Source: an uncultured Pseudomonadota bacterium
Lineage (GTDB): Bacteria > Pseudomonadota > Alphaproteobacteria > Rs-D84
DNA length: 64,000 nt
Reading direction: 5' to 3'
Assembly (NCBI GenBank): GCA_902771695.1
Contig: CACXXP010000005.1
Location: 16,944-80,943, forward strand
Part shown: positions 21,071-35,847 of the stretch, in pieces
Layout: each line of letters begins with the position of its first letter
How positions within the stretch are numbered: the stretch's first letter is position 1
The notes under the pieces: generated by a model
Database searches by the model: none
Told to the model about the DNA's origin: nothing
What the model saw: the letters and a program-made list of their open reading frames with translations, nothing else
Program-made: the position numbers and the translations under genes

Positions 21071-22135
21071 ATGGATACAGATAAAAAGATTATTGCAATA
21101 GATGCTATGGGGGGTGACAAAGGACCCGCCGCGGTTCTTGGTGGAATGAACCAATTTCTGTATCAACATGGCGAATCAACAATAACATTCCGTATTTTTG
21201 GAGACGAAAAGAAGTTGCGCAAAATGATGGCACGTTATCCACGTGTTGCACGCAACAGTGTGGTCATAGATGCCCCAGATGTAATTCATGGCACGGATAA
21301 AGTTCGCGATGTTATCCGTCATGCGCAAAATACATCCATGTATATGGCAATCAAAGATGTTCGCGAAGGAAATTCTGCGGCGGTGGTCAGTTCTGGTAAT
21401 ACCGGCGTTTTAATGTCGTTATCTAAATTGGCGTTAAAAACGGTTGATGGTATTTCGCGGCCAGCGATTACAACAATGTTGCCATCGGGTGCCGGGGATT
21501 CACGTGTCGTTGTGTTGGACTTGGGTGCCAATGTGCAGTGCGATGCGGAAAACCTGTTTGACTTTACAATTCTTGGTGGTGTGTATGCCGAAATCATTGG
21601 TAAAATGCCGCGACCAAAACTTGGGGTGTTGAATATTGGGGAAGAAGAAACCAAGGGTAACGAAACACTGCAACGTGTGAACAAGGTATTGTTGGCACAC
21701 CGTGATGAATTACCGTATGAATACCTTGGGTTTGTGGAACCAACAGATATCAGTGCCGGTCGTGTCCAGGTCGTTGTGACAGATGGTTTTACCGGAAACA
21801 TTGTGTTGAAAACGGTGGAAGGTACGGCAAAATTGATAAAGCGTGTTATTACCGAAAATATGAAAAAATCATTTTTGGCGGTTATCGGTGCGTTTTTCTT
21901 GGTTCATGTTTTCAAGAGATTAAAACATAAAATAGATCCGCGTTCTTATGCCGGTGCAACATTTTTGGGGCTGAACGGTTTTGCGGTAAAAACTCATGGA
22001 AATTCTGACGCGTTGGCATTTGCAAATGCAATTCAATATGCGGCAGATATGACAGGTGCAAACCTGAATGATGTTATTCGTGGACGTGTTGCAACAATGG
22101 CGCACATTCGTTCGGAATTAAAGGCAACCGAATAA
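21071..22135 (+). CDS. plsX: Phosphate acyltransferase PlsX
   Basis: IAIDAMGGD, VSSGNTG, LDLGANV, LLNIG-like GVLNIGEEETKG, VVVTDGFTGN, KTHGNS. Confidence 0.97.
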   Translation: MDTDKKIIAIDAMGGDKGPAAVLGGMNQFLYQHGESTITFRIFGDEKKLRKMMARYPRVARNSVVIDAPDVIHGTDKVRDVIRHAQNTSMYMAIKDVREGNSAAVVSSGNTGVLMSLSKLALKTVDGISRPAITTMLPSGAGDSRVVVLDLGANVQCDAENLFDFTILGGVYAEIIGKMPRPKLGVLNIGEEETKGNETLQRVNKVLLAHRDELPYEYLGFVEPTDISAGRVQVVVTDGFTGNIVLKTVEGTAKLIKRVITENMKKSFLAVIGAFFLVHVFKRLKHKIDPRSYAGATFLGLNGFAVKTHGNSDALAFANAIQYAADMTGANLNDVIRGRVATMAHIRSELKATE

Positions 22136-22197: not shown

Positions 22198-23367
22198 ATG
22201 TTTAAAATATCTGTATCTTGTTTGGCGGCGATATGCGTTGTGGGTAATTTATACGCAATTGAAAATGTATCACCACAAATTCAAAAATTATTGGCGCAAA
22301 AGCAAGAAAAAATCGCTGAATTAGAAAAGTGCGATGGCAAACGCAAGGGCTTTATGATTGCGGGTATATCAACCATTGGTCTTACGGCGGTGGGGGTTGG
22401 TGTTAATGTTGCACAGGCGAATAAAAGCAATAATTTGTCTGGCCAAATAGAAGCAAAAAATAAAGAATTGGCCCTTAAAAACATAAATTCACAAATAGAA
22501 AAATTAGAAAAAGAAAAATTACGTGTCAATTGCGAACAAGATGAAACAAAACAATGGTCAAATGGGCAATGTATTGCCAAAACCCCTGGAATTGTTCAGC
22601 AGGCACAACCGGTCACAGAAACCCCGACCCCAATTGTTAATACGGGGGTGCCGGTGGCGGCAAGTGGCCCAACCGAACCAAAAGTTGATGCCACCAAGTG
22701 GACCAAGGAAGCATATCAACAATGCCTTGCAAATGTGTACACTGATTTTGCAATGACATTGTCATCAAACCCATCAGAAAAGGTTGGAATAAGGTGGTAT
22801 TGGTCAAAGTCACATAATGGAAAATGGTGCGAAGGGTACCAAGGCGGCAAATATTTCTATGATTACAAAAAAAATCAAAACCCATGTACGAAATCAAAGT
22901 TCACATCACTTGCCAATGGCGAATGGACGGTGACGTTGCAAAACGGCAAAACAATGCAAGGCATCGCAATGTGCAGTAATACACGTGGCACCGTTAAAGA
23001 TGAATTAAAAGATGTAATAGATGTTAATGGGGGCGGGGCAAATTGCTGGTGTAAATTAACGAAAACAGATTTATCAGAATGTTTGGTGACACAAAAGTTT
23101 TCTTGGATTTTTATGGATAATTTTACCCCGATTGATGCGTCTGATATGGAAGACAAGGGTATTTATGATTCATATCATAATCCTATGCCAGATGAATATT
23201 ATAAATTGGGCCAGAATACTTGCCTTTGGCAATGTGCAAACGAATGTGGGTACCAATTGTTTGATTACGGTGGACGTGACAGAACAAGAACAATGCACGG
23301 TGTTCCATGGATAGATATGTATGATACAAATAAAGAAGCATTGTTAAATTTGATGCATTCAAAATAA
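22198..23367 (+). CDS. Secreted modular protein: signal peptide, hydrophobic helix, coiled coil, Pro/Thr linker, Cys-rich C-terminal domain
   Basis: 389-aa ORF after a TGATATAAT extended -10; N-terminal hydrophobic leader; GIAMCSN...GANCWCKLT...CLWQCANECG. Confidence 0.8.
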   Translation: MFKISVSCLAAICVVGNLYAIENVSPQIQKLLAQKQEKIAELEKCDGKRKGFMIAGISTIGLTAVGVGVNVAQANKSNNLSGQIEAKNKELALKNINSQIEKLEKEKLRVNCEQDETKQWSNGQCIAKTPGIVQQAQPVTETPTPIVNTGVPVAASGPTEPKVDATKWTKEAYQQCLANVYTDFAMTLSSNPSEKVGIRWYWSKSHNGKWCEGYQGGKYFYDYKKNQNPCTKSKFTSLANGEWTVTLQNGKTMQGIAMCSNTRGTVKDELKDVIDVNGGGANCWCKLTKTDLSECLVTQKFSWIFMDNFTPIDASDMEDKGIYDSYHNPMPDEYYKLGQNTCLWQCANECGYQLFDYGGRDRTRTMHGVPWIDMYDTNKEALLNLMHSK

Positions 23368-23374
23368 AAAACAA

Positions 23375-23430
23375 CGCCGGCAATTACTCGCCGGCGCGCT
23401 CTCCTTCCTTCCGGAACCCGGAAACTTTTT
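23375..23430. terminator. Paired hairpins between convergent genes
   Basis: CGCCGGC...GCCGGCG and TTCCGG-aac-CCGGAA-acTTTTT. Confidence 0.6.
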
Positions 23431-23438
23431 ATGCGGAA

Positions 23439-23774
23439 CTATGCCGCCATTGCAACGTTATCGCTTGATTTGTCGCTTTCTGCATCCAAGATACGTTTTG
23501 CTTCGGCGAAAACCATTTCTTTCACACGCAATGCCAATTCTTTTGTTTCCAAACTTTCGGCGGCAACATCAAAGTTGTCCGTACGAATTTGCAAGGAAAC
23601 ATACGCACCAATCAAGGATGTACGTGGTAAATCTTCAATAGAACGTGGCGAATTGTTGTGACCGATTTGCAATTCATCACTAAGTGATATTATTTGGCGA
23701 TCCGCGTTGACCCAAACAGTTGTGCTTAAAACCTTGTGCAACGCAATCATTATTTCTTTGATGTTTTTTGGCAT
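23439..23774 (-). CDS. Hypothetical protein, 111 aa, ending ...SDKSSDNVAMAA
   Basis: Strong GAAAGGAGGG RBS before ATG 23774. Confidence 0.85.
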   Translation of the reverse strand: MPKNIKEIMIALHKVLSTTVWVNADRQIISLSDELQIGHNNSPRSIEDLPRTSLIGAYVSLQIRTDNFDVAAESLETKELALRVKEMVFAEAKRILDAESDKSSDNVAMAA

Positions 23775-23949
23775 GTGTGTCCCTCCTTTCTCGGGCGTTG
23801 TTGGCAAAATCTAAAGCAGTTTTGTATTTACACGATGTATTTACAAAAAACCGAATTAAATTTTTCTTTTGTTCCTTGTTTTTCCCAGAAAACCAAGTTT
23901 TTCCTAGATTTCTGGGGGTTTTATACTTATGTCCCTTGTCTATACACGG

Positions 23950-23979
23950 ATGATAGAATAAAAACGAATCGTGGGTCAA
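23950..23979 (-). promoter_or_regulatory. Candidate sigma70 promoter of the 111-aa gene
   Basis: TTGACC-18 bp-TATCAT on the minus strand, about 170 nt upstream of the ATG. Confidence 0.5.
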
Positions 23980-24035
23980 GAGAAAAAATGTAAAAAAATA
24001 AAAAAATTTTTTATCAGTGGGTCAACATATTGCAA

Positions 24036-25631
24036 TTAGACGAATTTTTCAGGAATAATTTTTGTGAAAATTTTGAACAGTCGTCTAAAAATGGTTGTAT
24101 CAGGTCCATGATGATATACACGTGGTTTCGTGTCGCCCGGTCTTAGCCCCGTCCACGTTGTAACGCCTTTTTTATTGGTTACATGCCAAGATATCTTTGT
24201 GTCATCAATAATCATGTCGCGCAGTTTTTGTGCAAATTCTGCACTTTCAAATATAACAACATTTTCAGTGTTATAATATGCACTGCGCGGGTCCAGATTA
24301 AAACTGCCTATCCATGATATTTTATCGTCAAATACGATGGTCTTGCTGTGCATAACAGAAAAACTGGATTGTTTACGTTCACGATCGTGTATTTTACCAC
24401 GTCTGTTTTCAGCGGACAGCATAAATTCATACACATCCACCCCCGATTGAATCAATTTTGTACGATATTTTTCCCATTTGCCGTACACAGTTGGCGCATT
24501 TGTTGATGCCAACGAATTTGTAACAATGGTTAAATGCACCCCAGATTTTTCTTCGTTGCACATCATGCGCATGCCACCACGACCTGGGACAAAATATGCC
24601 GCCGATACATATGCGCTTTTTTCTGTCTTTTGCCACAGTTTCCCAAGTGCCAACATAATTTCGCCACTGTAATTTTCTTTATCGGCCATTGACATTTCAA
24701 CTTTTTCTGGTGGGTCGGCGATAAATTGACCATGTCCCCATGAAAAATCAAAATTCTTGCGATTAAATTCACGTATTGCCAACGAAATAATTGTATCATA
24801 TTTTCGTTTGTTTATTGGATTTGTCCGGTTCAGTTTTTTTAGTTGGCGTCTTAATTTTCTTAATGCATGCCGTGAACACGCCTTGGGTATTACAGATGCA
24901 GGCACGGCCAAGTGATGATTCCAATACATGTTAAAACTTGTTGTTGCATCGCGTGCAACCGCCCCCATAAATAACACATCTGTATCTGAAAAATTTGCGG
25001 CGGTTTCTGGCATAAAATAATTGCTGCCCACGTTGCGACCACCAGTAATAAATGCGACATTGTCCACAATAAAAAGTTTATTATGCATGCGAGAATTCAG
25101 ACGATTAAAATCCATCAGCATTTGCGGATAATATAAAAGTCGTGAACGATTTTTTACCGCATTAAAAATTTTAACTTCTATGTTTGGATGCTGGGTCAAA
25201 ATAATTACATCCGCAATATTAGAATTTGTCCCGTAATCGTCAATCAGTATTCTTACTTTGACGCCACGATCCGCCGCGTTTTTCAATTCGTCTATTAAAA
25301 TGTGTGATGAAAAATCGTTACTGTAAATATATGTTTGCAGGTCAATGGTTTTTGTCGCCATACGTGCAAATGCCGCCCGAATAACAAATGCCGACAGACC
25401 GTCATCAATTAGTGTTGCACCACTGATATTTTCTTTTTTGGTTAATTCTTTTTTGTATGGTTTAACAATGGGCGTGGTAATGGGGTCATATTCAAAATCG
25501 TGTTTAGTGATTTTTGGTTTATATGTTGCCAATTTTTTGTCGTGCATGCTGGTTGGTATGGTTGCACAACCAAAAAAAGGAAACTTACAAGATGACAAAA
25601 ATTTTTTATTCAAGTTTGTTACAATTTTCAA
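24036..25631 (-). CDS. Phospholipase D family protein (two HKD motifs; ClsC/YmdC-like); start uncertain
   Basis: MHNKLFIVDN...GGRNVG and MHSKTIVFDD...IGSFNLDPRS. Confidence 0.9.
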   Translation of the reverse strand: MKIVTNLNKKFLSSCKFPFFGCATIPTSMHDKKLATYKPKITKHDFEYDPITTPIVKPYKKELTKKENISGATLIDDGLSAFVIRAAFARMATKTIDLQTYIYSNDFSSHILIDELKNAADRGVKVRILIDDYGTNSNIADVIILTQHPNIEVKIFNAVKNRSRLLYYPQMLMDFNRLNSRMHNKLFIVDNVAFITGGRNVGSNYFMPETAANFSDTDVLFMGAVARDATTSFNMYWNHHLAVPASVIPKACSRHALRKLRRQLKKLNRTNPINKRKYDTIISLAIREFNRKNFDFSWGHGQFIADPPEKVEMSMADKENYSGEIMLALGKLWQKTEKSAYVSAAYFVPGRGGMRMMCNEEKSGVHLTIVTNSLASTNAPTVYGKWEKYRTKLIQSGVDVYEFMLSAENRRGKIHDRERKQSSFSVMHSKTIVFDDKISWIGSFNLDPRSAYYNTENVVIFESAEFAQKLRDMIIDDTKISWHVTNKKGVTTWTGLRPGDTKPRVYHHGPDTTIFRRLFKIFTKIIPEKFV

Positions 25632-25779
25632 CTTAGTCTGATTTTATGTGATGCGTTCGTAATTTGCAAGTTAAAAGAAGAAATCACAAATATAAAATTC
25701 ATTTCATGTGATACTTTTTCGCTTGCGTTATCACGCGCGATAATGATAAAATAATTGCAATGGAAGGAAAGATTTTACA

Positions 25780-28700
25780 ATGAAACGATTTGCTATGTTC
25801 CTTGGGGGACTGTTGATACTGCCCGCATTTGGCGAGGTTGCACCGATGTTCTATGACGAATATGATATGGAATATGTTGATGCGGATTACGCAGATGATG
25901 CATATTACGATGATGCAGATGTCATAGAAGAGGAAGAATTTGAAGAAACAGATAAAAAATCTGTTAAAACGCCGGTCAAGGTTTCGCGTCAACAGGTTGT
26001 GTCACGTAATATTGCAAATCGTTCCACCGCTTCGCGTGTCACACCGTCAAATGCAACATCTGTTGCGTCTGGACGTGGTAAATCAACCGGAAATTCATCG
26101 CGTGCGGTTGCGGCCCGAACAACAACGGCCGTATCGCCACGGACAAATGCATCGCGCACAGTTTCATCGCGTACCGCAACAACCAGTGCAACACGTGCGG
26201 CGGCCGCGCGTGCGACCGGGGGCGCAACACGGACGGCAACCCGTACAGGAACGGTTGCGTCGTCTGGGGTAAAATCATCGTCTGTGGCACGCACATCAAC
26301 AAATTCGTCGGGTTCGCGTATTTCACGTGCGGCGCGTACACAAAACAAGGTTGTAACGTTGTCGGGTAATGAAAATATCGTCGGTGCCCAGACTGGTTTG
26401 TATTACAATCCAAATGAAAAGAGTGAATCAACTTCTTTGTATAATTCTAATCGTGCAAGTATTCGAACCAGTTCTACAAGACGTTCGCCGGTTCTGCGTG
26501 CATCGTCGATGAGTGGCTTGTCTACGGAAACGGCGGCACCGTTTGCCAAAGATACAACAGAAATGGACGAATTGGCGGAATTGACAGATTACTGCAAGGC
26601 CCAGTATATGGCATGTATGGATAATTATTGTAATGTCTTGGATGAAAACCAGGGACGTTGCAGTTGTAGTGCAAATCTGAAGAATTATGCAAAATCCGAG
26701 GCGGCATTGAAGCAGGCGACCGAAGAATTGCAAGATGTCGCACAAAAAATTCAATACATTGGTTTGTCCGCGCGTGAAGTTGAAACATTGTTCAGTCAGA
26801 CCGAAGCGGAATTGAAAATGCAATCCAATGTGGATACCAGTCAATTAAAGACCAGTTTGGATAAAGTCAAAGAAATGATAATAGACGCCAAATCTGGAAA
26901 TGTCAGCACTTCTTCCAGTGGTATGAGTTTTGACATCAGTGGTTTGTTGGATTTCACCATAGACAGCACCGGATTTGATTTGTCATCGTTCCTTGGTGGA
27001 TTGGCGGGTGGTAATAATAATGTCAGCAACCAACGTGGTGAAGAATTATTCAAAACTGCGACAACGCGTTGCAAGGCGAATGTGTTACGGGCTTGCACCG
27101 CCCAGGGGGTTGATGCATCAATAATAACAAATGCATACGATTTGGAAATAGATAAAGAATGTATCGCATATGAAAAATCGTTGAATGAATCAAACGATCA
27201 GATGGTGGCAACTGTTCGTAATGCCCAAGGCGTTCTGCAAAAGGCGCGTTTGATGGTTGCAAAATCCAAAAATGAATATGATATGCGCGGATGTATAAAC
27301 GCACTGGATGCGTGTATGCAGGATGAATTTGTTTGTGGTTCTGATTATGAAAACTGTTTGGACCCATCGGGCCGTTACATTGTTAATGGTGAAATCGTTG
27401 TCGGTTCGCAACCAGGCCATGCAATTGATCCGGAATTGGCCGCAAATGTCAGTACTGTTATGACCAGTGACGTTTGTGACATCAACCTGTATCGGACATG
27501 GGATTTCCCGGATTCACAATGTGCCGGTTATGATGGCACATATACATCGGCGTTTCAACAAAACAACGCATGGGGATCGGGTGAAAATGATACATTGGCC
27601 AAATATATTGACGCAACGGTTGTTACCGGGGCGGCCAAGAAAGCCAGTATAAATATGTCTGAATATTTGCAGAAAAAGATTGGTTATGTAGAAGGCGATA
27701 AAAACTTTGGTATGTGTGTTGGTGTTCTGAATAAATGTCAAGATTATACATATACGGGCAAGGGGACAAATGTAAAATATAATCAAGAAAACGAGGTTGT
27801 TAAACAATACCTGTCACGTGTTTTGGTACAAATCAAGGCGAAGCAAGACCAGGTTTTATCTGAATATGCCGAAAGTTGTATAACCGACGTTTCGTCATGT
27901 TTGGCACAAAACGGTTATCCAACCGAAGAACCCCAGGACGAATACGGCACGGAACAATGGACGGGAACCGAACAGACCCAGGCGAATATTGCAATAAATG
28001 CATGCCGTGCAACAATTGTGACATGTATGTCGGTTAATGGTTATTCAATTTCAACCCCAACCCCCAGCGAGATGAACTGTTGGGTTATGGGATTGCAGTT
28101 TAACACCGCAACATCTGAATGTGCCACCAATGGCAGTGGTATAACCCCAACCCCAACGCCCGGTGGCAACGGCGGTGGCACGGAATATACCGTAAGTTTT
28201 AGTTGTGGTCAGGGGACGGGAAGTGTATCATCGCAAACAACGACAAATGGTTCCGTGACATTACCGAAGTTCGGTTGTACGACACCTGCGAACTGTACGT
28301 TTGTTGGGTGGGATTGTCCGGGTAGTTCAAATTATTTACCGTATAGCACATCGTATAGTCCAAGTAGCGATGCACAATGCGTGGCACATTATAATTGTGG
28401 GGGCAGCACCACAACTTCGTATACGATTACGTATAAATGTGGTTCTGGGGCAACGGGCAGTGATTGGACCAAGCAAGTTACTGGCACGAGCAGTAGTGTA
28501 AGTGTGACATGGGATAGTGCATCTTCGGTCAACAGCCATTGTTCGTATACGAATTATACCGCAAGCAATTGGAATTGTGCACGTGAAGGATACACATCGG
28601 GAACAGACCAAAACTTTGGTCAATCCACAACAATCAGAAGTAACGTAACATGTACGGTGGTTTGGACGCCAAATGCCGGGAATACAGAATGCAGTCCGTC

Positions 28701-29154
28701 TAATCGTCAGTATTGCGATGAATCTAATTGCGCCACAACCGGCCAAGGTGCATGGTGCTATGCGTCGTCAACCGCGAGATCCAAGAGTTGTTTGGCCAGT
28801 GAATCATCCTGTAAGTGTCATGCACTAGATTTGGAACGTTGCACAGGTTCAACGTGTGCAGCGTTGGGTAATAATTATCATTACTGTGCAACTGGAACAA
28901 GTAAGGCAAGTTGCAGCACATCAGGCAGTGGATGTTGCTATACAACCACAACAGTATCACCTGCGTGTAATAATGAAACAATTTGCAGATTGGTTGGTAA
29001 CAGTTGGTGCGCAAGCAGCAGCACATGTTTACCGGCAGGTCAGAATTGTATTAGTGGTGGTGATACACCGATAATGAGTACGAGTCCGCAATGGTCAAGT
29101 GCAATTGAAACGGACGAAAACAGCAGTATAAGTGCTGTTGTTGGGGCAATATAA
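25780..29154 (+). CDS. Large secreted protein, 1124 aa: acidic Tyr/Asp tract, R/S/T/A low-complexity region, Cys-paired helical core, Cys/Thr/Ser-rich tip
   Basis: Long ORF, GGAAG RBS, signal peptide MKRFAMFLGGLLILPAFG. Confidence 0.85.
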   Translation: MKRFAMFLGGLLILPAFGEVAPMFYDEYDMEYVDADYADDAYYDDADVIEEEEFEETDKKSVKTPVKVSRQQVVSRNIANRSTASRVTPSNATSVASGRGKSTGNSSRAVAARTTTAVSPRTNASRTVSSRTATTSATRAAAARATGGATRTATRTGTVASSGVKSSSVARTSTNSSGSRISRAARTQNKVVTLSGNENIVGAQTGLYYNPNEKSESTSLYNSNRASIRTSSTRRSPVLRASSMSGLSTETAAPFAKDTTEMDELAELTDYCKAQYMACMDNYCNVLDENQGRCSCSANLKNYAKSEAALKQATEELQDVAQKIQYIGLSAREVETLFSQTEAELKMQSNVDTSQLKTSLDKVKEMIIDAKSGNVSTSSSGMSFDISGLLDFTIDSTGFDLSSFLGGLAGGNNNVSNQRGEELFKTATTRCKANVLRACTAQGVDASIITNAYDLEIDKECIAYEKSLNESNDQMVATVRNAQGVLQKARLMVAKSKNEYDMRGCINALDACMQDEFVCGSDYENCLDPSGRYIVNGEIVVGSQPGHAIDPELAANVSTVMTSDVCDINLYRTWDFPDSQCAGYDGTYTSAFQQNNAWGSGENDTLAKYIDATVVTGAAKKASINMSEYLQKKIGYVEGDKNFGMCVGVLNKCQDYTYTGKGTNVKYNQENEVVKQYLSRVLVQIKAKQDQVLSEYAESCITDVSSCLAQNGYPTEEPQDEYGTEQWTGTEQTQANIAINACRATIVTCMSVNGYSISTPTPSEMNCWVMGLQFNTATSECATNGSGITPTPTPGGNGGGTEYTVSFSCGQGTGSVSSQTTTNGSVTLPKFGCTTPANCTFVGWDCPGSSNYLPYSTSYSPSSDAQCVAHYNCGGSTTTSYTITYKCGSGATGSDWTKQVTGTSSSVSVTWDSASSVNSHCSYTNYTASNWNCAREGYTSGTDQNFGQSTTIRSNVTCTVVWTPNAGNTECSPSNRQYCDESNCATTGQGAWCYASSTARSKSCLASESSCKCHALDLERCTGSTCAALGNNYHYCATGTSKASCSTSGSGCCYTTTTVSPACNNETICRLVGNSWCASSSTCLPAGQNCISGGDTPIMSTSPQWSSAIETDENSSISAVVGAI

Positions 29155-29176
29155 GTTAAATAATGGGGACATCGTG

Positions 29177-32100
29177 ATGAGAAAAACATTCCTTTATTCG
29201 CTTTGTGGATGCTTTATGACCAGTGCGGCCGTGGCGTTCACTTTTTACGTTGACTTGAATCCAAACAGCGATTGTCCCGATGGTTATTCTTTTTGTATGA
29301 CACGTCCCCAGGATGGTTACTGTTGTCCATCAGATATGGTTTTGCGTGGGGTTACATCCAGTGGTTATACCTCTTCTAAGGTTGTGGCAGGTTTTGTTGT
29401 ACAAGATGGTGCTGGCAATCAAGCTACATTGTTTAATGCGGATGGCAGTGCACGCAGCAACAAGGGATTTACCACAGAAGAAATTCAGATAATTAATAAT
29501 GCATCCATGGAAACAGGAACAGCTTCAAATATCGGTTTGGGCAGGAAAGAATACGATAATACGGGTAATATTACATATATTGTACTTGGTGACGGTGATG
29601 AAATAACAGAAACGGGGCAACAACCACGCAGTCCATCGTGTGAACGTGTGCATATGAATTTGTACACTTGCAATACGTATACATACAATTCAAACGGTGG
29701 TGGAACCACATGCACCGGTAAACAAAAGGTTGGTGAAATATATTACAAAAAAGATGCGGGGTATTTTACCAATCCAAATTACAGTTCATCATCACGTCTG
29801 AAAGATGAAAATATGACCAGTGGTACCACATTATCGGTGCCCACGCGCAGTGGTTATACTTTCCGTGGATATTTCACATCTGTGTGGACGGATGCCGTTG
29901 GCGGTTCTTCGTCATTGACGGATTCTTCGTCATATATAAACAATTTAAGTCCATATCGCACGATTGGAAACGCGTACATCCCGTGGAAAGAAAATTTGGT
30001 CAATGGAAATACGGCGGGTAATGAATTATTCCTGCGTGCACCCAATTGGGTGGTATCAGGTCCCGGTGTTTCATGTCCATCGGCCGGTTACCAGATTGAT
30101 TTATATGCCGGTTGGGCAGAAAATTGTGAAGATAGTTCTTATTGTAAAATGACGATTACCGGTAAAAATGGTAAAGACATGAACCATATGGTAATGGCAA
30201 CAAATAACACATCTATTACGGGGCAATGGTTGCCGGGTGCGGTGGAATATGAACGTGCACAAACATGTAAAACTGGTACGCCAATCGGTACTGAATACGT
30301 GACGAAAAAATATGGTTCACAAAGTTTAACTTTTGCATTGGGAACATCTGGGTTGGGGTGCGAAGACAAGGGTGGTAACGGTGCCGGCGCATCGCAAATA
30401 ACAATAAATTACTATGATGCCAGTGGTAATAAAAAAGGATATACATCTTGTAATATCGGCGAAACCGTAACATTGAATGGTGCAACTACGTTAACCAATG
30501 TTACGGCATTTAAATTCAAAGGTGTCGCATCGGGTGGAACCACATTTAACCGTGGCGAAACATATTCTTGTAATGTCACGCGCGTATTTACGCAATACAC
30601 AACCAGTGGTGATAACTATATCGTCAATTTGGAACCGGCCACAACAGGTGGTAATGGCGGTGATTCCGATGGTAAAATTAACGTGACGATAAATTTGGGT
30701 GGTGGTGAAATAGACGGCGAAGGCAGTGTCAGCGGAAAATATAACGAAGGCACAAATGTGAGTGTTGGGAATTTGGGCGACATAACCCGTGGTGACGGTG
30801 CGATAGCGACGGGATTAAAGGGGGCTGGGGAATCCAGTTCTGATGCCCGAGATACCGTGACGGTTTCTGATAATGGTGGCGGTTCCGCTGAATACGAGGT
30901 TGTATGGTCATGCCCAGATGGTATGGTGATGAATCCCCAGGGTGTCTGTGTTGATCCCGATGGTGATTATATTGACCGTGGCGGAAATTCTGTTCCACCA
31001 TCACAATTAACATGCTGGCGTGATGAAAATGGTGATGGCATACATGATACAAATTATTGCTATTGGCATGTGAATATTACATTCCATGGTAAACCAGCAG
31101 GTTCAAATTTGAATGTGACAGATCCAAACGAAGGTAAAACATTGAATTGTTATGGTGGCCAGGGATGTCACACAACGAGTACGGACAGATTTTGTGCAAG
31201 TTATCTTGCAGCCCCGGCGGCTCCGAATACATGTGCTACGATGCACATGCCTACGGCCACGGGGTATAAATTCCGTGGATATTATCGGACACCATTACCA
31301 ACGGATATCATAACACAAACCAGTACAACAAACGGTGGGGCGTATAATAATTTCTTCCCGAAAAGTACCGCAACAAATGCGACAACTATGTCCATTACCG
31401 GACATGCGATTGTCGTGATGAGTGATACACCTGTTGCGACCAATGCGTCCATAAACATTGATGTATATGCCGGTTGGGCACGTGAATGCGATACCAGTGA
31501 CCCGAATGCAATCTGTGATTTAAAACAGGGTATCTGGTGGAATACTCGTGATAATTTGGGCAAGGGGGATGTCCGTTATGATACAGGTTGTACCGATGGA
31601 TATGTTTTAAGATCGGGCGGTGGCACATATAAACCGATTTGTGAAACAGAAAAGGGCGGCGATGGAAATATTGCATACGTATTCAAAGACCAATGGGGTA
31701 ATACGGTGTCTTGTAATGGGCCGGCCGCAAATTGCACATTGGGTGATACTTTCAGGTTGACCGATACATCTGCGGTTCAACAGGCATGTGGTAGTAATTA
31801 TAAACTGAAATACCTGATTACCACCGGGGCATCGGGCGATTGGTGGAAACCAGGTAAGAGTGGTATGTCGTGCAGTACGAATTTATTGGGGTCGGGTAAT
31901 CCACGAACCATCATCGGAACGGTGTGCAATAATTTTTGCACAATTGGGCAACATTATGACAATTTACATGCAACTTGTGTTGGCCTTACGACCCAGGGAG
32001 ACACCCCGACCAGTTTGGGCGTGACGATGCCACGGACCACAACCTATAATGGCACAAATTATTGGGTTGTTAATGGCAGTGATATGGTCCAAAACCTGTG

Positions 32101-33013
32101 GGGAACATGTTCTGGTAATTCTTGCACCGCGGATTGTCCAACGTTACAATGCGATGATGGTTATGGTTTGGTTGTTGACAGCACGGGTCCACATTGTGTT
32201 GTTAAAACTGGTGGTGGCGATGCCCCAAGTTACACTTGTCCAAGTTTAAGTGAATTGGGAATAAACCTGCCGGGTGTAACGGTTAATGTGACAAAATCCG
32301 GGGCGGATGCATGTACGTATACTCTGTCTTGTTCTGGTGACCATATGACGGTGGTTGGTAACAGTTCTGTGACATGTTATGGTTCAAACGGAACACACGG
32401 TTGTACGTATGCATGGTTGTCCAGCCAGATTGGCAGTTCACAATGCCAATTCCAATGCCCATCCCCCGCAGGCAGTGCGGCGCACACATCAGTCAGTCGT
32501 GCACATGCCTATGGCGAAGGAACAAGTGGTAAAAAATGCGATTACAAGGTTGTTTGCAACACTGATTGCCCGGCAAGCAACGGTTGGCAGATGACATATG
32601 ATGGCATCCTGTTCGGGTTTGGTGGATATGCAACAAGTGGTGATGATTGGACACCTGTAATAGTGTCATGTGAAGGTAATGATTGTTATAACAATATGCC
32701 GGGGTATACGAACATGATTAACCCGAATATGAACGGTGTTATGCTTAGCAAGTTTGCATGTCTGCAAAGACCATCATTTACGAAATGTCCGGCGGTTCGT
32801 TGGTTGAATATGACCAATTTGGCAAATGTGACAATTGGTAATCCGGCATTATCTGGAACAACATGTTCATATGATATGGGATGCAGTTCTGGTACATTAA
32901 CTGGTTCTGGGTCGGATCCACTTACATGTACTGGTGATGCATGCACGGTCAAGGCCATTAACAACAGATTGACCACAACGAACTACTCTTGTTCAATCAG
33001 TGGCGGCAACTGA
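29177..33013 (+). CDS. Large secreted Cys/Gly/Thr-rich surface protein with InlB B-repeat-like motifs and sushi-like modules; N-terminal part of an interrupted gene
   Basis: GGGGA RBS, signal peptide MRKTFLYSLCGCFMTSAAVA; PTRSGYTFRGY..LYAGW and PTATGYKFRGY..VYAGW; ends at TGA 33011-33013. Confidence 0.8.
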   Translation: MRKTFLYSLCGCFMTSAAVAFTFYVDLNPNSDCPDGYSFCMTRPQDGYCCPSDMVLRGVTSSGYTSSKVVAGFVVQDGAGNQATLFNADGSARSNKGFTTEEIQIINNASMETGTASNIGLGRKEYDNTGNITYIVLGDGDEITETGQQPRSPSCERVHMNLYTCNTYTYNSNGGGTTCTGKQKVGEIYYKKDAGYFTNPNYSSSSRLKDENMTSGTTLSVPTRSGYTFRGYFTSVWTDAVGGSSSLTDSSSYINNLSPYRTIGNAYIPWKENLVNGNTAGNELFLRAPNWVVSGPGVSCPSAGYQIDLYAGWAENCEDSSYCKMTITGKNGKDMNHMVMATNNTSITGQWLPGAVEYERAQTCKTGTPIGTEYVTKKYGSQSLTFALGTSGLGCEDKGGNGAGASQITINYYDASGNKKGYTSCNIGETVTLNGATTLTNVTAFKFKGVASGGTTFNRGETYSCNVTRVFTQYTTSGDNYIVNLEPATTGGNGGDSDGKINVTINLGGGEIDGEGSVSGKYNEGTNVSVGNLGDITRGDGAIATGLKGAGESSSDARDTVTVSDNGGGSAEYEVVWSCPDGMVMNPQGVCVDPDGDYIDRGGNSVPPSQLTCWRDENGDGIHDTNYCYWHVNITFHGKPAGSNLNVTDPNEGKTLNCYGGQGCHTTSTDRFCASYLAAPAAPNTCATMHMPTATGYKFRGYYRTPLPTDIITQTSTTNGGAYNNFFPKSTATNATTMSITGHAIVVMSDTPVATNASINIDVYAGWARECDTSDPNAICDLKQGIWWNTRDNLGKGDVRYDTGCTDGYVLRSGGGTYKPICETEKGGDGNIAYVFKDQWGNTVSCNGPAANCTLGDTFRLTDTSAVQQACGSNYKLKYLITTGASGDWWKPGKSGMSCSTNLLGSGNPRTIIGTVCNNFCTIGQHYDNLHATCVGLTTQGDTPTSLGVTMPRTTTYNGTNYWVVNGSDMVQNLWGTCSGNSCTADCPTLQCDDGYGLVVDSTGPHCVVKTGGGDAPSYTCPSLSELGINLPGVTVNVTKSGADACTYTLSCSGDHMTVVGNSSVTCYGSNGTHGCTYAWLSSQIGSSQCQFQCPSPAGSAAHTSVSRAHAYGEGTSGKKCDYKVVCNTDCPASNGWQMTYDGILFGFGGYATSGDDWTPVIVSCEGNDCYNNMPGYTNMINPNMNGVMLSKFACLQRPSFTKCPAVRWLNMTNLANVTIGNPALSGTTCSYDMGCSSGTLTGSGSDPLTCTGDACTVKAINNRLTTTNYSCSISGGN

Positions 33014-34350
33014 CTGGCGTGCCCCACGGGGGGTGATATTCCAACAATTACGCATGGAAGGGTGACCAAAACCGGTTCAACAACCACATCGTGTTCTTAT
33101 CAGGCAACATGCACGGATACAGGTTATAACTGTGATACAACAACCGGATTGTGCGGAACAAAAACATGCAATTCTGAATCAGGGTGCAATACATTGATGA
33201 ATCAATATCGTAGTGTGTCATCAACATTGTGTAAAACGACAACATCCCAATGTCCAACAACAGGTTGGCAGATGCAGCCAAATGTTAGTTTCAATGGACC
33301 ATCATCGTCAGGTTCAAACTGTACATATACACCAAAGTGCACCAATGGTGGAACATTGTATAATGGTGATGCGGTATCCAATGGCGCCACAATAACTTGC
33401 ACACTTGGGATAACCTGGGAACAATGTTCAGACCTTATTTCTGTCCGGTGTCTGTCACATGTCCACCGGAGGGTACGTTTGGTAATTTGGCAAATGGAAG
33501 GATTGAGGAACCAACAAAACCAAATGTTTCAACATGTCAGTATCAGTTATCGTGTAACACAAATTATACGCTTAATGGATATAATCCAATTGAATGTTCT
33601 GGGGATACTTGTAATACGAATTATCTAAGTTCACAACTTCAGCAACGTTCTTGTCAACAGGATTTCAAATGTCCAGATGCATCGGTTCCAGGTGGATATG
33701 GTAGCATTCTGAACACACAAACTGGTAACAAATGTGATTATACGTTAAAGTGCGATACTGGCTATGCCTATCCGAATGGCACAGCAACACATACCTGTAC
33801 CGGCAGCGCATGCACCACCGGCACCAACAGCGTCACCACATGGGCAAGTGGATTAGAATGTAAAGCCAAAGTCACATGTCCAAGTTCCAAGATAGTAACG
33901 CATGGTCAGATTACAATGGAAAGTATAGAAAATGGAACAGCATGTAATTATACGATAAATTGTAATGCACCAGCATATATATGTAATACGGCTAATTTAG
34001 CAGACCAGTGTACTAATGGATTCAGATGCGAAACAGCCGAAGCGTGTAATACATTCTTGAATATGACCCGTGGTGTTGAGGCGTGTGTATTTGAATGCCC
34101 GTCTAAGGAATATGTGAAAAGCAAAATACCACATTTGGACTATATTGGTAGAGTGACAAGTGGTACACAGCCTAATTGTACATATGGCTATGCAACATGT
34201 GCTAGTTGTTATACCAAGACATCAGGTTCAGCCAGTAGCGTAAAGTGTAACGATGAAGGTGAACAGTGTAATGAAACCGGGGCTAATGCTTGGTATACGG
34301 GCATAGTTTGTGAATGGGTTGGTGGTGATGGTTGTGGGCCTGATCGATAA
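33014..34350 (+). pseudogene. In-frame continuation of the 29177 gene beyond the TGA, with a further -1 frameshift near 33435
   Basis: Same frame resumes as LACPTGG...CSYQATC; the same CP..CxYxxxC module continues in ORFs 33062-33628 and 33397-34350; no RBS or signal peptide of its own. Confidence 0.75.
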
Positions 34351-34396: not shown

Positions 34397-34726
34397 CTAA
34401 TGATGCGAAATTAAATGCATTACTATGCCACCAATGGTAAATACCGTAATGCACAGCAAGAATATCTTTTGTGCACGATGATGGTGCGTTTCACCGCAAT
34501 GGTCGCAATTGCATGCATCATGGTTAAAATACATAACCCATGACAAAATCAGCATTAAACCAGAAAATACGAACACCCAAATTTCTGCGCTTTCGGGAAT
34601 AATTTCATGATCGGCAAAATCAGGTGCAACCATGCCGATAATGCCCAATACAACCGGCAATACGCAACAAAACAGGTGCGGCAATATTCCGGCGATAATT
34701 CCAACTTTGACGGCTTTGTTTTTCAT
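34397..34726 (-). CDS. Small 3-TM membrane protein, MerC/MerT-like metal-binding
   Basis: HLFCCVLP in TM1, CNCDHCGETHHH loop, C-terminal HH. Confidence 0.65.
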   Translation of the reverse strand: MKNKAVKVGIIAGILPHLFCCVLPVVLGIIGMVAPDFADHEIIPESAEIWVFVFSGLMLILSWVMYFNHDACNCDHCGETHHHRAQKIFLLCITVFTIGGIVMHLISHH

Positions 34727-34744: not shown

Positions 34745-34820
34745 TGGTATCCCCAGTTGGAATCGAACCAGCATCTAATTCTTAGGAGGAATTTGTTCTA
34801 TCCAATTGAACTATGGGGAC
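34745..34820 (-). tRNA. trnR: tRNA-Arg (CCT)
   Basis: Minus strand GTCCCCA...TGGGGAT-A-CCA, anticodon loop CT-CCT-AA, GGTTCGATT T-loop. Confidence 0.96.
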
Positions 34821-34908: not shown

Positions 34909-35847
34909 ATGGGAAATAAACTTATTGGATATGGATCTTATTTGCCCGCACGTGTTATGACAAATGCGGACTTTGAACGTGCGATGGATACAACAGATGA
35001 ATGGATTGTGTCACGTACCGGTATTAAACAACGACACTTTGCCGCCGCGGATGAAACGGTCGCAGATATGGCAACAAATGCCGCACGTCGTGCATTGGAA
35101 AATGCTAAAATCGGTATAGACGATATTGATATGATTATCGTTGCAACAACCACGCCAGAATTAGATTTTCCATCTGTGGCGGTTCAGGTAATGGGGCGTT
35201 TGGGTGCAACAAAAAATATTCCGGCGTTTGATGTACGTGGTGCATGTACCGGGTTTATATATGCGTTGCATTGTGCACGTGGTTTCTTTACCGCGGGCAT
35301 ACATGAAAGAATAATGATTATTGGTGCCGAAAAAATGTCGCGTTTTGTTGATATGACCGACCGGTCCACGGCGGTTCTGTTTGGCGATGGGGCGGGCGCA
35401 TTGATATTTGAACGTTCTACGTCAAGTTATTCCGGAATAATAGATACGGTTGTCATGTCGGATGGTAAAAAGTTTGATATGCTGCATGGATCCCCAGACC
35501 ATAAAATAATTATGAATGGCCCGGAAACGTATAAAATGGCGGTATCACTGATGCCGGATGCGGCACGTTACATTATGGAACATGCCGGTATTACCCAAGA
35601 TGATATAGATTGGATTATTCCGCACCAGGCAAATATTCGTATTATTCAATCATGCGCGGAACGATTGGGATTCCCGCTGGACAAGATTTTAATCACAGTG
35701 GACCGGCATGCAAATACCAGTGGTGCATCGGGTGCTTTGGCACTTGCATATGCGTTTGATAATGGTATAATCAAACATGGTCAGTTAATTTTATATCCCG
35801 CATTTGGCAGTGGGCTAACATGGGGGGCAACATTAATAAGGGTGTAA
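34909..35847 (+). CDS. fabH: 3-oxoacyl-ACP synthase III
   Basis: SRTGIKQRH, FDVRGACTGF (Cys), LFGDGAGA, IPHQANIRI (His), HANTSGAS (Asn), AFGSGLTWG. Confidence 0.97.
   Translation: MGNKLIGYGSYLPARVMTNADFERAMDTTDEWIVSRTGIKQRHFAAADETVADMATNAARRALENAKIGIDDIDMIIVATTTPELDFPSVAVQVMGRLGATKNIPAFDVRGACTGFIYALHCARGFFTAGIHERIMIIGAEKMSRFVDMTDRSTAVLFGDGAGALIFERSTSSYSGIIDTVVMSDGKKFDMLHGSPDHKIIMNGPETYKMAVSLMPDAARYIMEHAGITQDDIDWIIPHQANIRIIQSCAERLGFPLDKILITVDRHANTSGASGALALAYAFDNGIIKHGQLILYPAFGSGLTWGATLIRV

Follow-up and report, generated by a model that had tools for sequence, protein, structure and literature searches.

Complement control protein (CCP) or sushi domains are usually taken to be characteristic of extracellular proteins of animals and of viruses that have copied these. 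The fifth CCP (domain V) of beta2-glycoprotein I (beta2GPI, UniProt P02749) is a known variant with six cysteines, disulfide bonds paired 1-4, 2-5 and 3-6, and a C-terminal extension, and is said to be an aberrant CCP; it also carries a loop that is rich in lysine and binds lipid. The A1 protein of phage Qbeta is an example of programmed UGA readthrough. A literature search for bacterial sushi/CCP proteins returned no relevant report. Here we describe a locus in a 64,000-nucleotide stretch of DNA (hereafter the window) from an uncultured ruminant-gut alphaproteobacterium (assembly GCA_902771695.1, contig CACXXP010000005.1, positions 16,944 to 80,943), in which an initial annotation had recognised nine tandem sushi-like six-cysteine modules in a bacterial surface protein at positions 32231-34350. 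Taking all the evidence together, we consider it fairly probable that this region is the C-terminal, CCP-like array of a Sec-exported, variable protein, and that its distal part is reached by readthrough of a conserved stop codon.

The module array

The translation of 32231-34350 was divided into nine cysteine-rich modules (Table 1) of the pattern C1-P ... C2-x-Y-x3-C3 ... C4-x(2-8)-C5 ... C6. A hidden Markov model (HMM) trained on the nine window modules only found the module nine times in the intact allele and 8-10 times in tandem in each of two divergent, independent homologues, with per-domain E-values in homologues of 1e-5 to 1e-20. In an alignment of 35 modules, C1, P, C2, C3, C4 and C5 are present throughout, and Y and C6 in nearly every module. 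The spacing from C6 to the next C1 is 3-9 residues, as in tandem modules with short linkers, and the protein carries a signal peptide. The module array is real, far beyond chance. The nine tandem modules described by the initial annotation were therefore recovered as a repeated unit, with the amendment that in this copy the array is not a single open reading frame (ORF): modules 1-3 form the end of the 29177-33013 ORF and the remaining modules lie outside it.

Pfam and NCBIfam scans of the four window ORFs matched no family, and a phmmer search of modules 6-9 against PDB sequences gave no match.

Predicted fold and relationship to sushi domains

Module 6 was modelled with AlphaFold2 using the 35-module alignment. 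The model, whose predicted local distance difference test score (pLDDT) is 91, comprises five strands and a helix (residues 55-63) and has the beta-sandwich of a CCP at the level of prediction. When the model was compared with the PDB by Foldseek, the top 50 matches were almost only CCP proteins. The best match was beta2GPI (prob 0.93, query TM-score (TMq) 0.54), with alignments of 68-71 columns that span the whole module; further matches were CD55, SPICE, CR2, factor H, CD46, C4BP and the short consensus repeats of E-selectin. Against BFVD, the best matches were complement control proteins of poxviruses and herpesviruses (prob up to 0.97), with a root-mean-square deviation of 1.9 A over 42 columns. 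The beta2GPI match is suggestive because the fifth CCP of that protein has six cysteines and a C-terminal extension.

At the sequence level the likeness was local. No window ORF matched Pfam Sushi at E<=1, and none of the excised window modules scored. When the 35 modules were scanned singly, three, all from homologues, matched Pfam Sushi at 23.9, 18 and 16.7 bits (gathering score 20.7 bits), the matches spanning positions 1-47 of the 56-position profile; the 23.9-bit match was one excised module of homologue P0003. A module profile gave seven weak matches in PDB sequences, six of them to CCP proteins (factor H, DAF and vaccinia complement control protein among them), and four verified multi-Sushi proteins appeared among the non-family matches of a search of 1.84 billion proteins. 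An hhalign comparison of the 35-module alignment with seven verified Sushi repeats gave a probability of 93.7% over 28 columns, in which the central motif Y-x-C-x-x-G-Y-x-L...C aligned to the Sushi repeats. The alignments map C1, C3 and C4 of the module to C1, C2 and C3 of sushi (in hhalign, C3 and C4 to C2 and C3). Each module has six invariant or near-invariant cysteines, compared with four in the canonical CCP, where they are bonded C1-C3 and C2-C4. Canonical CCPs also have a conserved tryptophan between their third and fourth cysteines; in the aligned modules a count by eye gave about 16 of 35 with a tryptophan between C5 and C6, and this residue is not invariant.

Several points weigh against a CCP relationship. 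Whole proteins fall below the Sushi gathering score (P0003 reaches 18 bits and nine others give nothing), the window modules are without any Pfam match, and the sequence likeness is limited to about 28-47 columns. The E-values of the multi-Sushi proteins are inflated by many near-identical repeats contributing few bits each, and the Sushi set used for hhalign was drawn from those same search matches and is hence biased. On the structural side, the Foldseek E-values in the PDB are weak (0.2-2.6) with a TMq of only 0.5-0.58, and AlphaFold2 is possibly biased towards a known small cysteine-rich fold.

These marginal scores in sequence and fold would suit an alternative in which the CCP likeness is convergent, an independent bacterial disulfide-rich beta module having come to share the CP start and the GY-x-L strand, whether accidentally or under structural constraint; the restriction of the family to one small bacterial clade and its different cysteine count point the same way. 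We regard convergence as rather unlikely, given that Pfam, the PDB profile search, the 1.84e9-protein HMM search, hhalign and two Foldseek libraries all single out CCP among thousands of families, with a cysteine mapping that is consistent across those tests. The modules are a distinct CCP variant, with six cysteines, a C-terminal helix and a tryptophan in about half, and their predicted fold is CCP-like; remote homology to CCP is plausible and unproven. The term sushi-like, as first applied to the modules, thus fits their predicted fold, where the leading Foldseek matches in both libraries are almost all CCP proteins, while in sequence it extends to a local motif and the hhalign result and stops short of the Sushi threshold for window ORFs and whole proteins alike.

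A conserved in-frame TGA

The first reading frame ends at a TGA in the linker that separates module 3 from module 4, and module 4 continues in the same frame beyond it (Table 1). The TGA is present in three lineages, represented by the window with contigs L001-3, by L004/5 and by L006/7 (at 9815-9817 in L001, about 1013-1015 in L004 and about 9962-9964 in L006). DNA contigs with the TGA came from seven runs in several studies, and RNA contigs spanning it from four metatranscriptomes. Downstream of the TGA the frames are open for 455-602 codons with every cysteine kept, and the ratio of nonsynonymous to synonymous substitution rates (omega) is 0.28-0.32, compared with 0.21 upstream. The synonymous divergence (dS) downstream ranges from 0.64 (modules 4-6, L001 against L004) to 2.1, the lower end being comparable to housekeeping genes (fabH 0.73, pepO 1.18). 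The lineages have no start codon in common in the part after the TGA, and that part lacks its own signal peptide. The locus combines a stop shared by three lineages with purifying selection beyond it over a dS of 0.64-2.1, which is one of the marks of programmed readthrough.

Use of TGA as a general sense codon was rejected: other long ORFs are uninterrupted, one other gene ends in TGA, and the tRNA-Trp anticodon is CCA. Among 43 long window ORFs (GC 36-45%), 33 end in TAA, 8 in TAG and 2 in TGA, which is strongly avoided. A special RNA element at the TGA was not supported, the folding z-scores being positive and an Rfam match lacking, and the near-identical DNA around the TGA in the three lineages is in itself no sign of an element, since the identity lies within the housekeeping background of 82-88%. 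A scan of metagenome contigs for GGCAACNNNCTGRCGTGCCCCAC, representing sense-codon alleles at the TGA site, returned chance matches only, in unrelated high-GC DNA.

Some observations speak against readthrough. RNAalifold and RNAfold detected no RNA structure at the TGA beyond a GC stem of 4-5 bp (z-scores +0.5 to +1.2), the TGA region is without an Rfam match, and in two of the four alleles that have the TGA a frameshift follows shortly after it (the 28-nt deletion of the window and an extra G in L004/5), which could instead mean decay of an untranslated tail. Such decay belongs to an alternative in which the TGA is a true stop, whatever lies past module 3 is a remnant that is not translated, and the modules are refreshed by recombination with TGA-less alleles. 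TGA-less and TGA alleles do coexist in one species, and even in one sample, and TGA acts as a stop elsewhere in the window. The remnant explanation is nonetheless hard to reconcile with a TGA common to three lineages that are separated by a housekeeping dS of about 0.6-1.2, with 455-602 open codons at an omega of about 0.3, or with a downstream part that keeps all its cysteines and lacks both a lineage-conserved start codon and a signal peptide; we hold it to be doubtful.

A conserved in-frame UGA followed by purifying selection might also be expected of selenocysteine, here as the first residue of a U-x-x-C motif (N-U-L-A/T-C-P) where module 4 begins, a cysteine standing three residues later in all three lineages. 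This assignment is very improbable. There is no stable or covarying hairpin resembling a selenocysteine insertion sequence, only the 4-5 bp CCCC/GGGG stem with a loop that is not conserved and positive z-scores; no tRNA-Sec lies within the window; no homologue has cysteine at the UGA position; and the site lies in a linker and is no known redox site. The marks of a bacterial selenoprotein, namely the hairpin, cysteine homologues at the site and, within the window, a tRNA-Sec, were absent.

Low-level readthrough at UGA-C, which would give a short and a long isoform, is the most likely reading of these sequence comparisons, because three lineages have the TGA in common and purifying selection acts on the frame beyond it.

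Frame breaks and variation between alleles

The window copy carries a second break. After 33407, 28 nt that are present in relatives (GCGGTACAGGATCCACGGCATGTACAAC) are absent, and because this deletion puts modules 6-9 out of frame the window copy has no capacity for the full nine-module array. The 28 nt are present in the near-identical contig L001 and in every public contig across the site (DNA runs X1 and X2, RNA runs X21-X23); among the contigs examined the deletion is found in the window only, and CGG microhomology lies at its edges (33407/33408). Either a lesion of this strain or an error of assembly would account for it.

Interruptions in the linkers are frequent among family members. 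As a side observation, the frame breaks of several members coincide with homopolymer G or C tracts in module linkers. The gene of L025 is split at a C9 tract (about 6028-6036) and that of L026 at a G6 tract (about 5197-5202), and L004/L005 have one additional G in the tract that is G6 in the window, within the first module 4 codons, which shifts the frame. As judged from assembled contigs, the linker tracts suggest slipped-strand phase variation.

The array itself was compared between alleles. In the sister species L006, housekeeping proteins are 85-98% identical overall to those of the window (fabH protein 98%, pepO 85%), and the array is about 32-41% identical. L020 belongs to the same species as the window (fabH 99.4% and pepO 99.5% identical in DNA), and its array gene, one continuous 1919-aa ORF, is 97% identical to that of the window up to 32995. 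There, a different module replaces module 4 together with its TGA; modules 5-6 are shared with the window, and the C-terminal modules after 33657 are entirely different. TGA-less and TGA allele types both occur in public runs, once in the same run. No silent cassette of an alternative module was found within the window, and the modules share no long DNA repeats. The array is hypervariable, with mosaic alleles even within one species, a pattern that would be expected of a variable, possibly phase-variable, exposed protein.

Distribution of the family

A word-indexed search of 5.8 billion proteins retrieved three proteins with the module region and seven with the N-terminal region. A full HMMER scan of 1.84 billion (1.84e9) cluster representatives with the module profile gave 39 proteins at E<=0.001, about 31 of them members of the family. 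The N-terminal signature was found in 2 of 185,579 GTDB species, 'uncultured proteobacterium RUG12956' and 'uncultured Alphaproteobacteria bacterium Red_deer_3_mag_193', whose orthologues are without the module array. Runs containing the window sequence came from bovine, sheep and other gut metagenomes. This is a very small family, whose traced loci all belong to a narrow clade of uncultured Alphaproteobacteria of the ruminant gut. The suggestion that the modules form a new bacterial family is borne out by the 39 matches among 1.84 billion representatives and the absence of a Pfam or NCBIfam family, and the HMM-based taxonomic survey proposed at the time places it narrowly, at about 30 cluster representatives.

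The initial annotation further raised host mimicry. In its strongest form the modules would be true animal CCP homologues, acquired by horizontal transfer from the ruminant or a rumen eukaryote and aimed at complement or selectin ligands. The CCP-like predicted fold and the local Sushi motif agree with this, as does the association of the organism with bovine, sheep and deer gut. Animal CCPs, however, lack the six invariant cysteines and the helix; window ORFs and whole proteins fall short of Pfam Sushi; the array DNA has a GC fraction of 0.44, like neighbouring DNA; the array is hypervariable, not conserved; and no closer eukaryotic relative was found among the 1.84e9 proteins searched. Complement is no obvious pressure in the gut lumen. 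The conservation pattern of the modules, which are hypervariable, contains nothing suggestive of C3b/C4b binding, decay-acceleration or cofactor motifs. We judge transfer from the host to be improbable, and mimicry found no support: beyond the fold there is no link to complement regulators, the array is hypervariable, and the organism is one of the ruminant gut.

The secreted protein and its genomic island

In P0004 (1919 aa), P0009 and P0016, the N-terminal region and the modules are encoded in one uninterrupted ORF, and the modules therefore belong to one secreted protein. In the window, the ORF called with translation table 11 extends from 29132 to 33013, and the ATG at 29177 is its likely start. 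The predicted Sec signal peptide, MRKTFLYSLCGCFMTSAAVA, has a putative AxA cleavage motif, and a similar start, read from the sequence, is conserved in P0006-P0010 and L006. This signal peptide supports the 'surface protein' of the initial annotation as far as export is concerned; no anchor was identified, and a surface location is presumptive.

The 443-aa central region is the hallmark of a wider protein family, as judged by phmmer against family members. Its AlphaFold2 model (pLDDT 83) is mostly beta, a chain of small domains. Foldseek gave weak matches only, to beta-grasp domains and Gram-positive surface proteins, too weak for a function to be taken from them, and a paralogue has a weak match to Flg_new. 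The matches of this region would fit a surface or extracellular protein; no activity was assigned.

At the other end of the protein, the C-terminal sequence C-x-W-V-G-G-D-G-C of module 9 also occurs in P0002, P0014, P0016, P0019, P0020 and P0022, where it is preceded by a ten-cysteine module of the module 8 type and the N-terminal parts differ. It may be a conserved C-terminal unit, with a possible role in sorting or anchoring.

All family members traced to contigs lie in one island, between a phospholipase D (PLD)-like gene downstream of plsX and fabH-ihf. In the window the island contains a 389-aa ORF, a 111-aa ORF (-), the PLD-like gene (-) and two giant cysteine-rich secreted proteins; in related species its content varies, with two to four large cysteine-rich secreted proteins and, in some, toxin-antitoxin genes. 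The upstream giant protein, of 1124 aa, has a signal peptide, a long low-complexity stretch rich in Ser, Thr, Arg and Ala, and cysteine-rich regions; it is conserved in L001, L006, L009 and L020 and has no Pfam or NCBIfam match. Beside the island is a 109-aa membrane protein with a CC motif in its first helix and the sequence C-N-C-D-H-C-G-E-T-H-H-H, which looks metal-binding. It is kept in the same position in L006/L007, has no Pfam match on record, and its gene is adjoined by a tRNA-Arg(CCT) gene.

Table 1 Positions of the array, its parent protein and neighbouring features within the window
Feature	Position	Strand	Description
Nine cysteine-rich modules	32231-34347	+	Lengths 69-109 aa; TAA at 34348-34350
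Module 1	32231..32449	+	73 aa; from module HMM and translation
Module 2	32450..32776	+	109 aa; long insertion in the C3-C4 interval
Module 3	32777..33010	+	78 aa
In-frame TGA	33011..33013	+	Linker between modules 3 and 4; next base C (UGA-C context)
Module 4	33014..33244	+	77 aa; ten-cysteine variant; frame of modules 1-3, beyond the TGA
G6 tract	33028..33033	+	Within the first module 4 codons; G7 in L004/L005
Module 5	33245..33453	+	Broken by the 28-nt deletion after 33407
Module 6	33454..33663	+	70 aa; out of frame with modules 1-5 here; module modelled with AlphaFold2
Module 7	33664..33870	+	69 aa
Module 8	33871..34089	+	73 aa; ten-cysteine variant
Module 9	34090..34350	+	86 aa, then TAA; conserved C-terminal end C-x-W-V-G-G-D-G-C
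First reading frame	29177..33013	+	Signal peptide, N-terminal/central region of about 1000 aa, modules 1-3, TGA
Predicted Sec signal peptide	29177..29236	+	Putative AxA cleavage motif
Central region	30890..32218	+	443 aa
Island	22198-34350		Between plsX (21071-22135) and fabH (34909-35847); splits the usual plsX-fabH-ihf neighbourhood
Upstream cysteine-rich protein	25780-29154		1124 aa
Membrane protein	34397-34726	-	109 aa
tRNA-Arg(CCT)	34745-34820	-	

Discussion

The region would form the array at the C-terminal end of a large modular protein that is rich in disulfides and exported by Sec; in the intact allele this protein has about 1,720 aa. For each module, of about 70 aa, the predicted fold is a CCP/sushi-like beta-sandwich with a short C-terminal helix, and the disulfides may be paired 1-4, 2-5 and 3-6 as in the fifth CCP of beta2GPI. 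With linkers of 3-9 residues, the modules would be strung as beads into a rod. The array appears to evolve by replacement, gain and loss of modules, even within one species. Because modules are replaced in this way and the linkers are often interrupted, we read the protein as a putative extracellular structure of variable make-up that would serve in binding or as a coat, in the manner of an adhesin or an antigenically variable protein, rather than a complement regulator. In the window, translation would stop after module 3 at the conserved UGA unless this is read through.

A more specific proposal, which we put forward tentatively and hold to be less likely than not to be right in full, is that the six-cysteine module with its helix is a branch of the CCP/sushi superfamily, either ancient in bacteria or derived from an old transfer that has since radiated, and that it is carried in a hypervariable secreted protein whose length depends on a conserved, leaky UGA, with short and long isoforms, and on frameshifts in homopolymer tracts. 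A bacterial family of this kind would bear on the origin of a fold usually associated with animals and their viruses, and the six-cysteine module, if the CCP fold is true, would be a new robust disulfide scaffold. The locus is also a concrete example of a bacterial chromosomal gene that has a conserved in-frame UGA and purifying selection on the part after it, and the interval from plsX to fabH seems to be a previously undescribed variable-protein island of an uncultured rumen lineage.

Antigenically or phase-variable surface proteins encoded by contingency loci resemble this locus in their mosaic alleles, in splits at linker tracts (C9, G6), in the G6/G7 tract beside the TGA, and in an island whose content differs between species. 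In contrast to contingency loci, the TGA itself is no repeat-mediated switch. With the phage Qbeta A1 protein the locus shares a conserved in-frame UGA, C as the next base, and a conserved extension under selection; unlike A1, it is a chromosomal bacterial gene at which no stimulatory structure was found and readthrough is deduced. Domain V of beta2GPI is alike in its six cysteines and its C-terminal extension past the canonical CCP core; its cysteine spacings differ from those of the bacterial module, and the Foldseek match does not show which beta2GPI domain was aligned. From PF00084 (factor H, CD55, CR2, selectins and poxvirus VCP) the bacterial modules are set apart by six invariant cysteines, with an extra C2/C5 pair, by the C-terminal helix, and by their setting in a bacterial host and a hypervariable array, with whole proteins below the gathering score and no functional link to complement found. 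They share with PF00084 a length of about 60-70 aa, the C-P start, the motif Y-x-C-x-x-G-Y-x-L-x...C, a tryptophan in about 16 of 35 modules, the predicted small beta-sandwich, and the arrangement in tandem arrays with short linkers.

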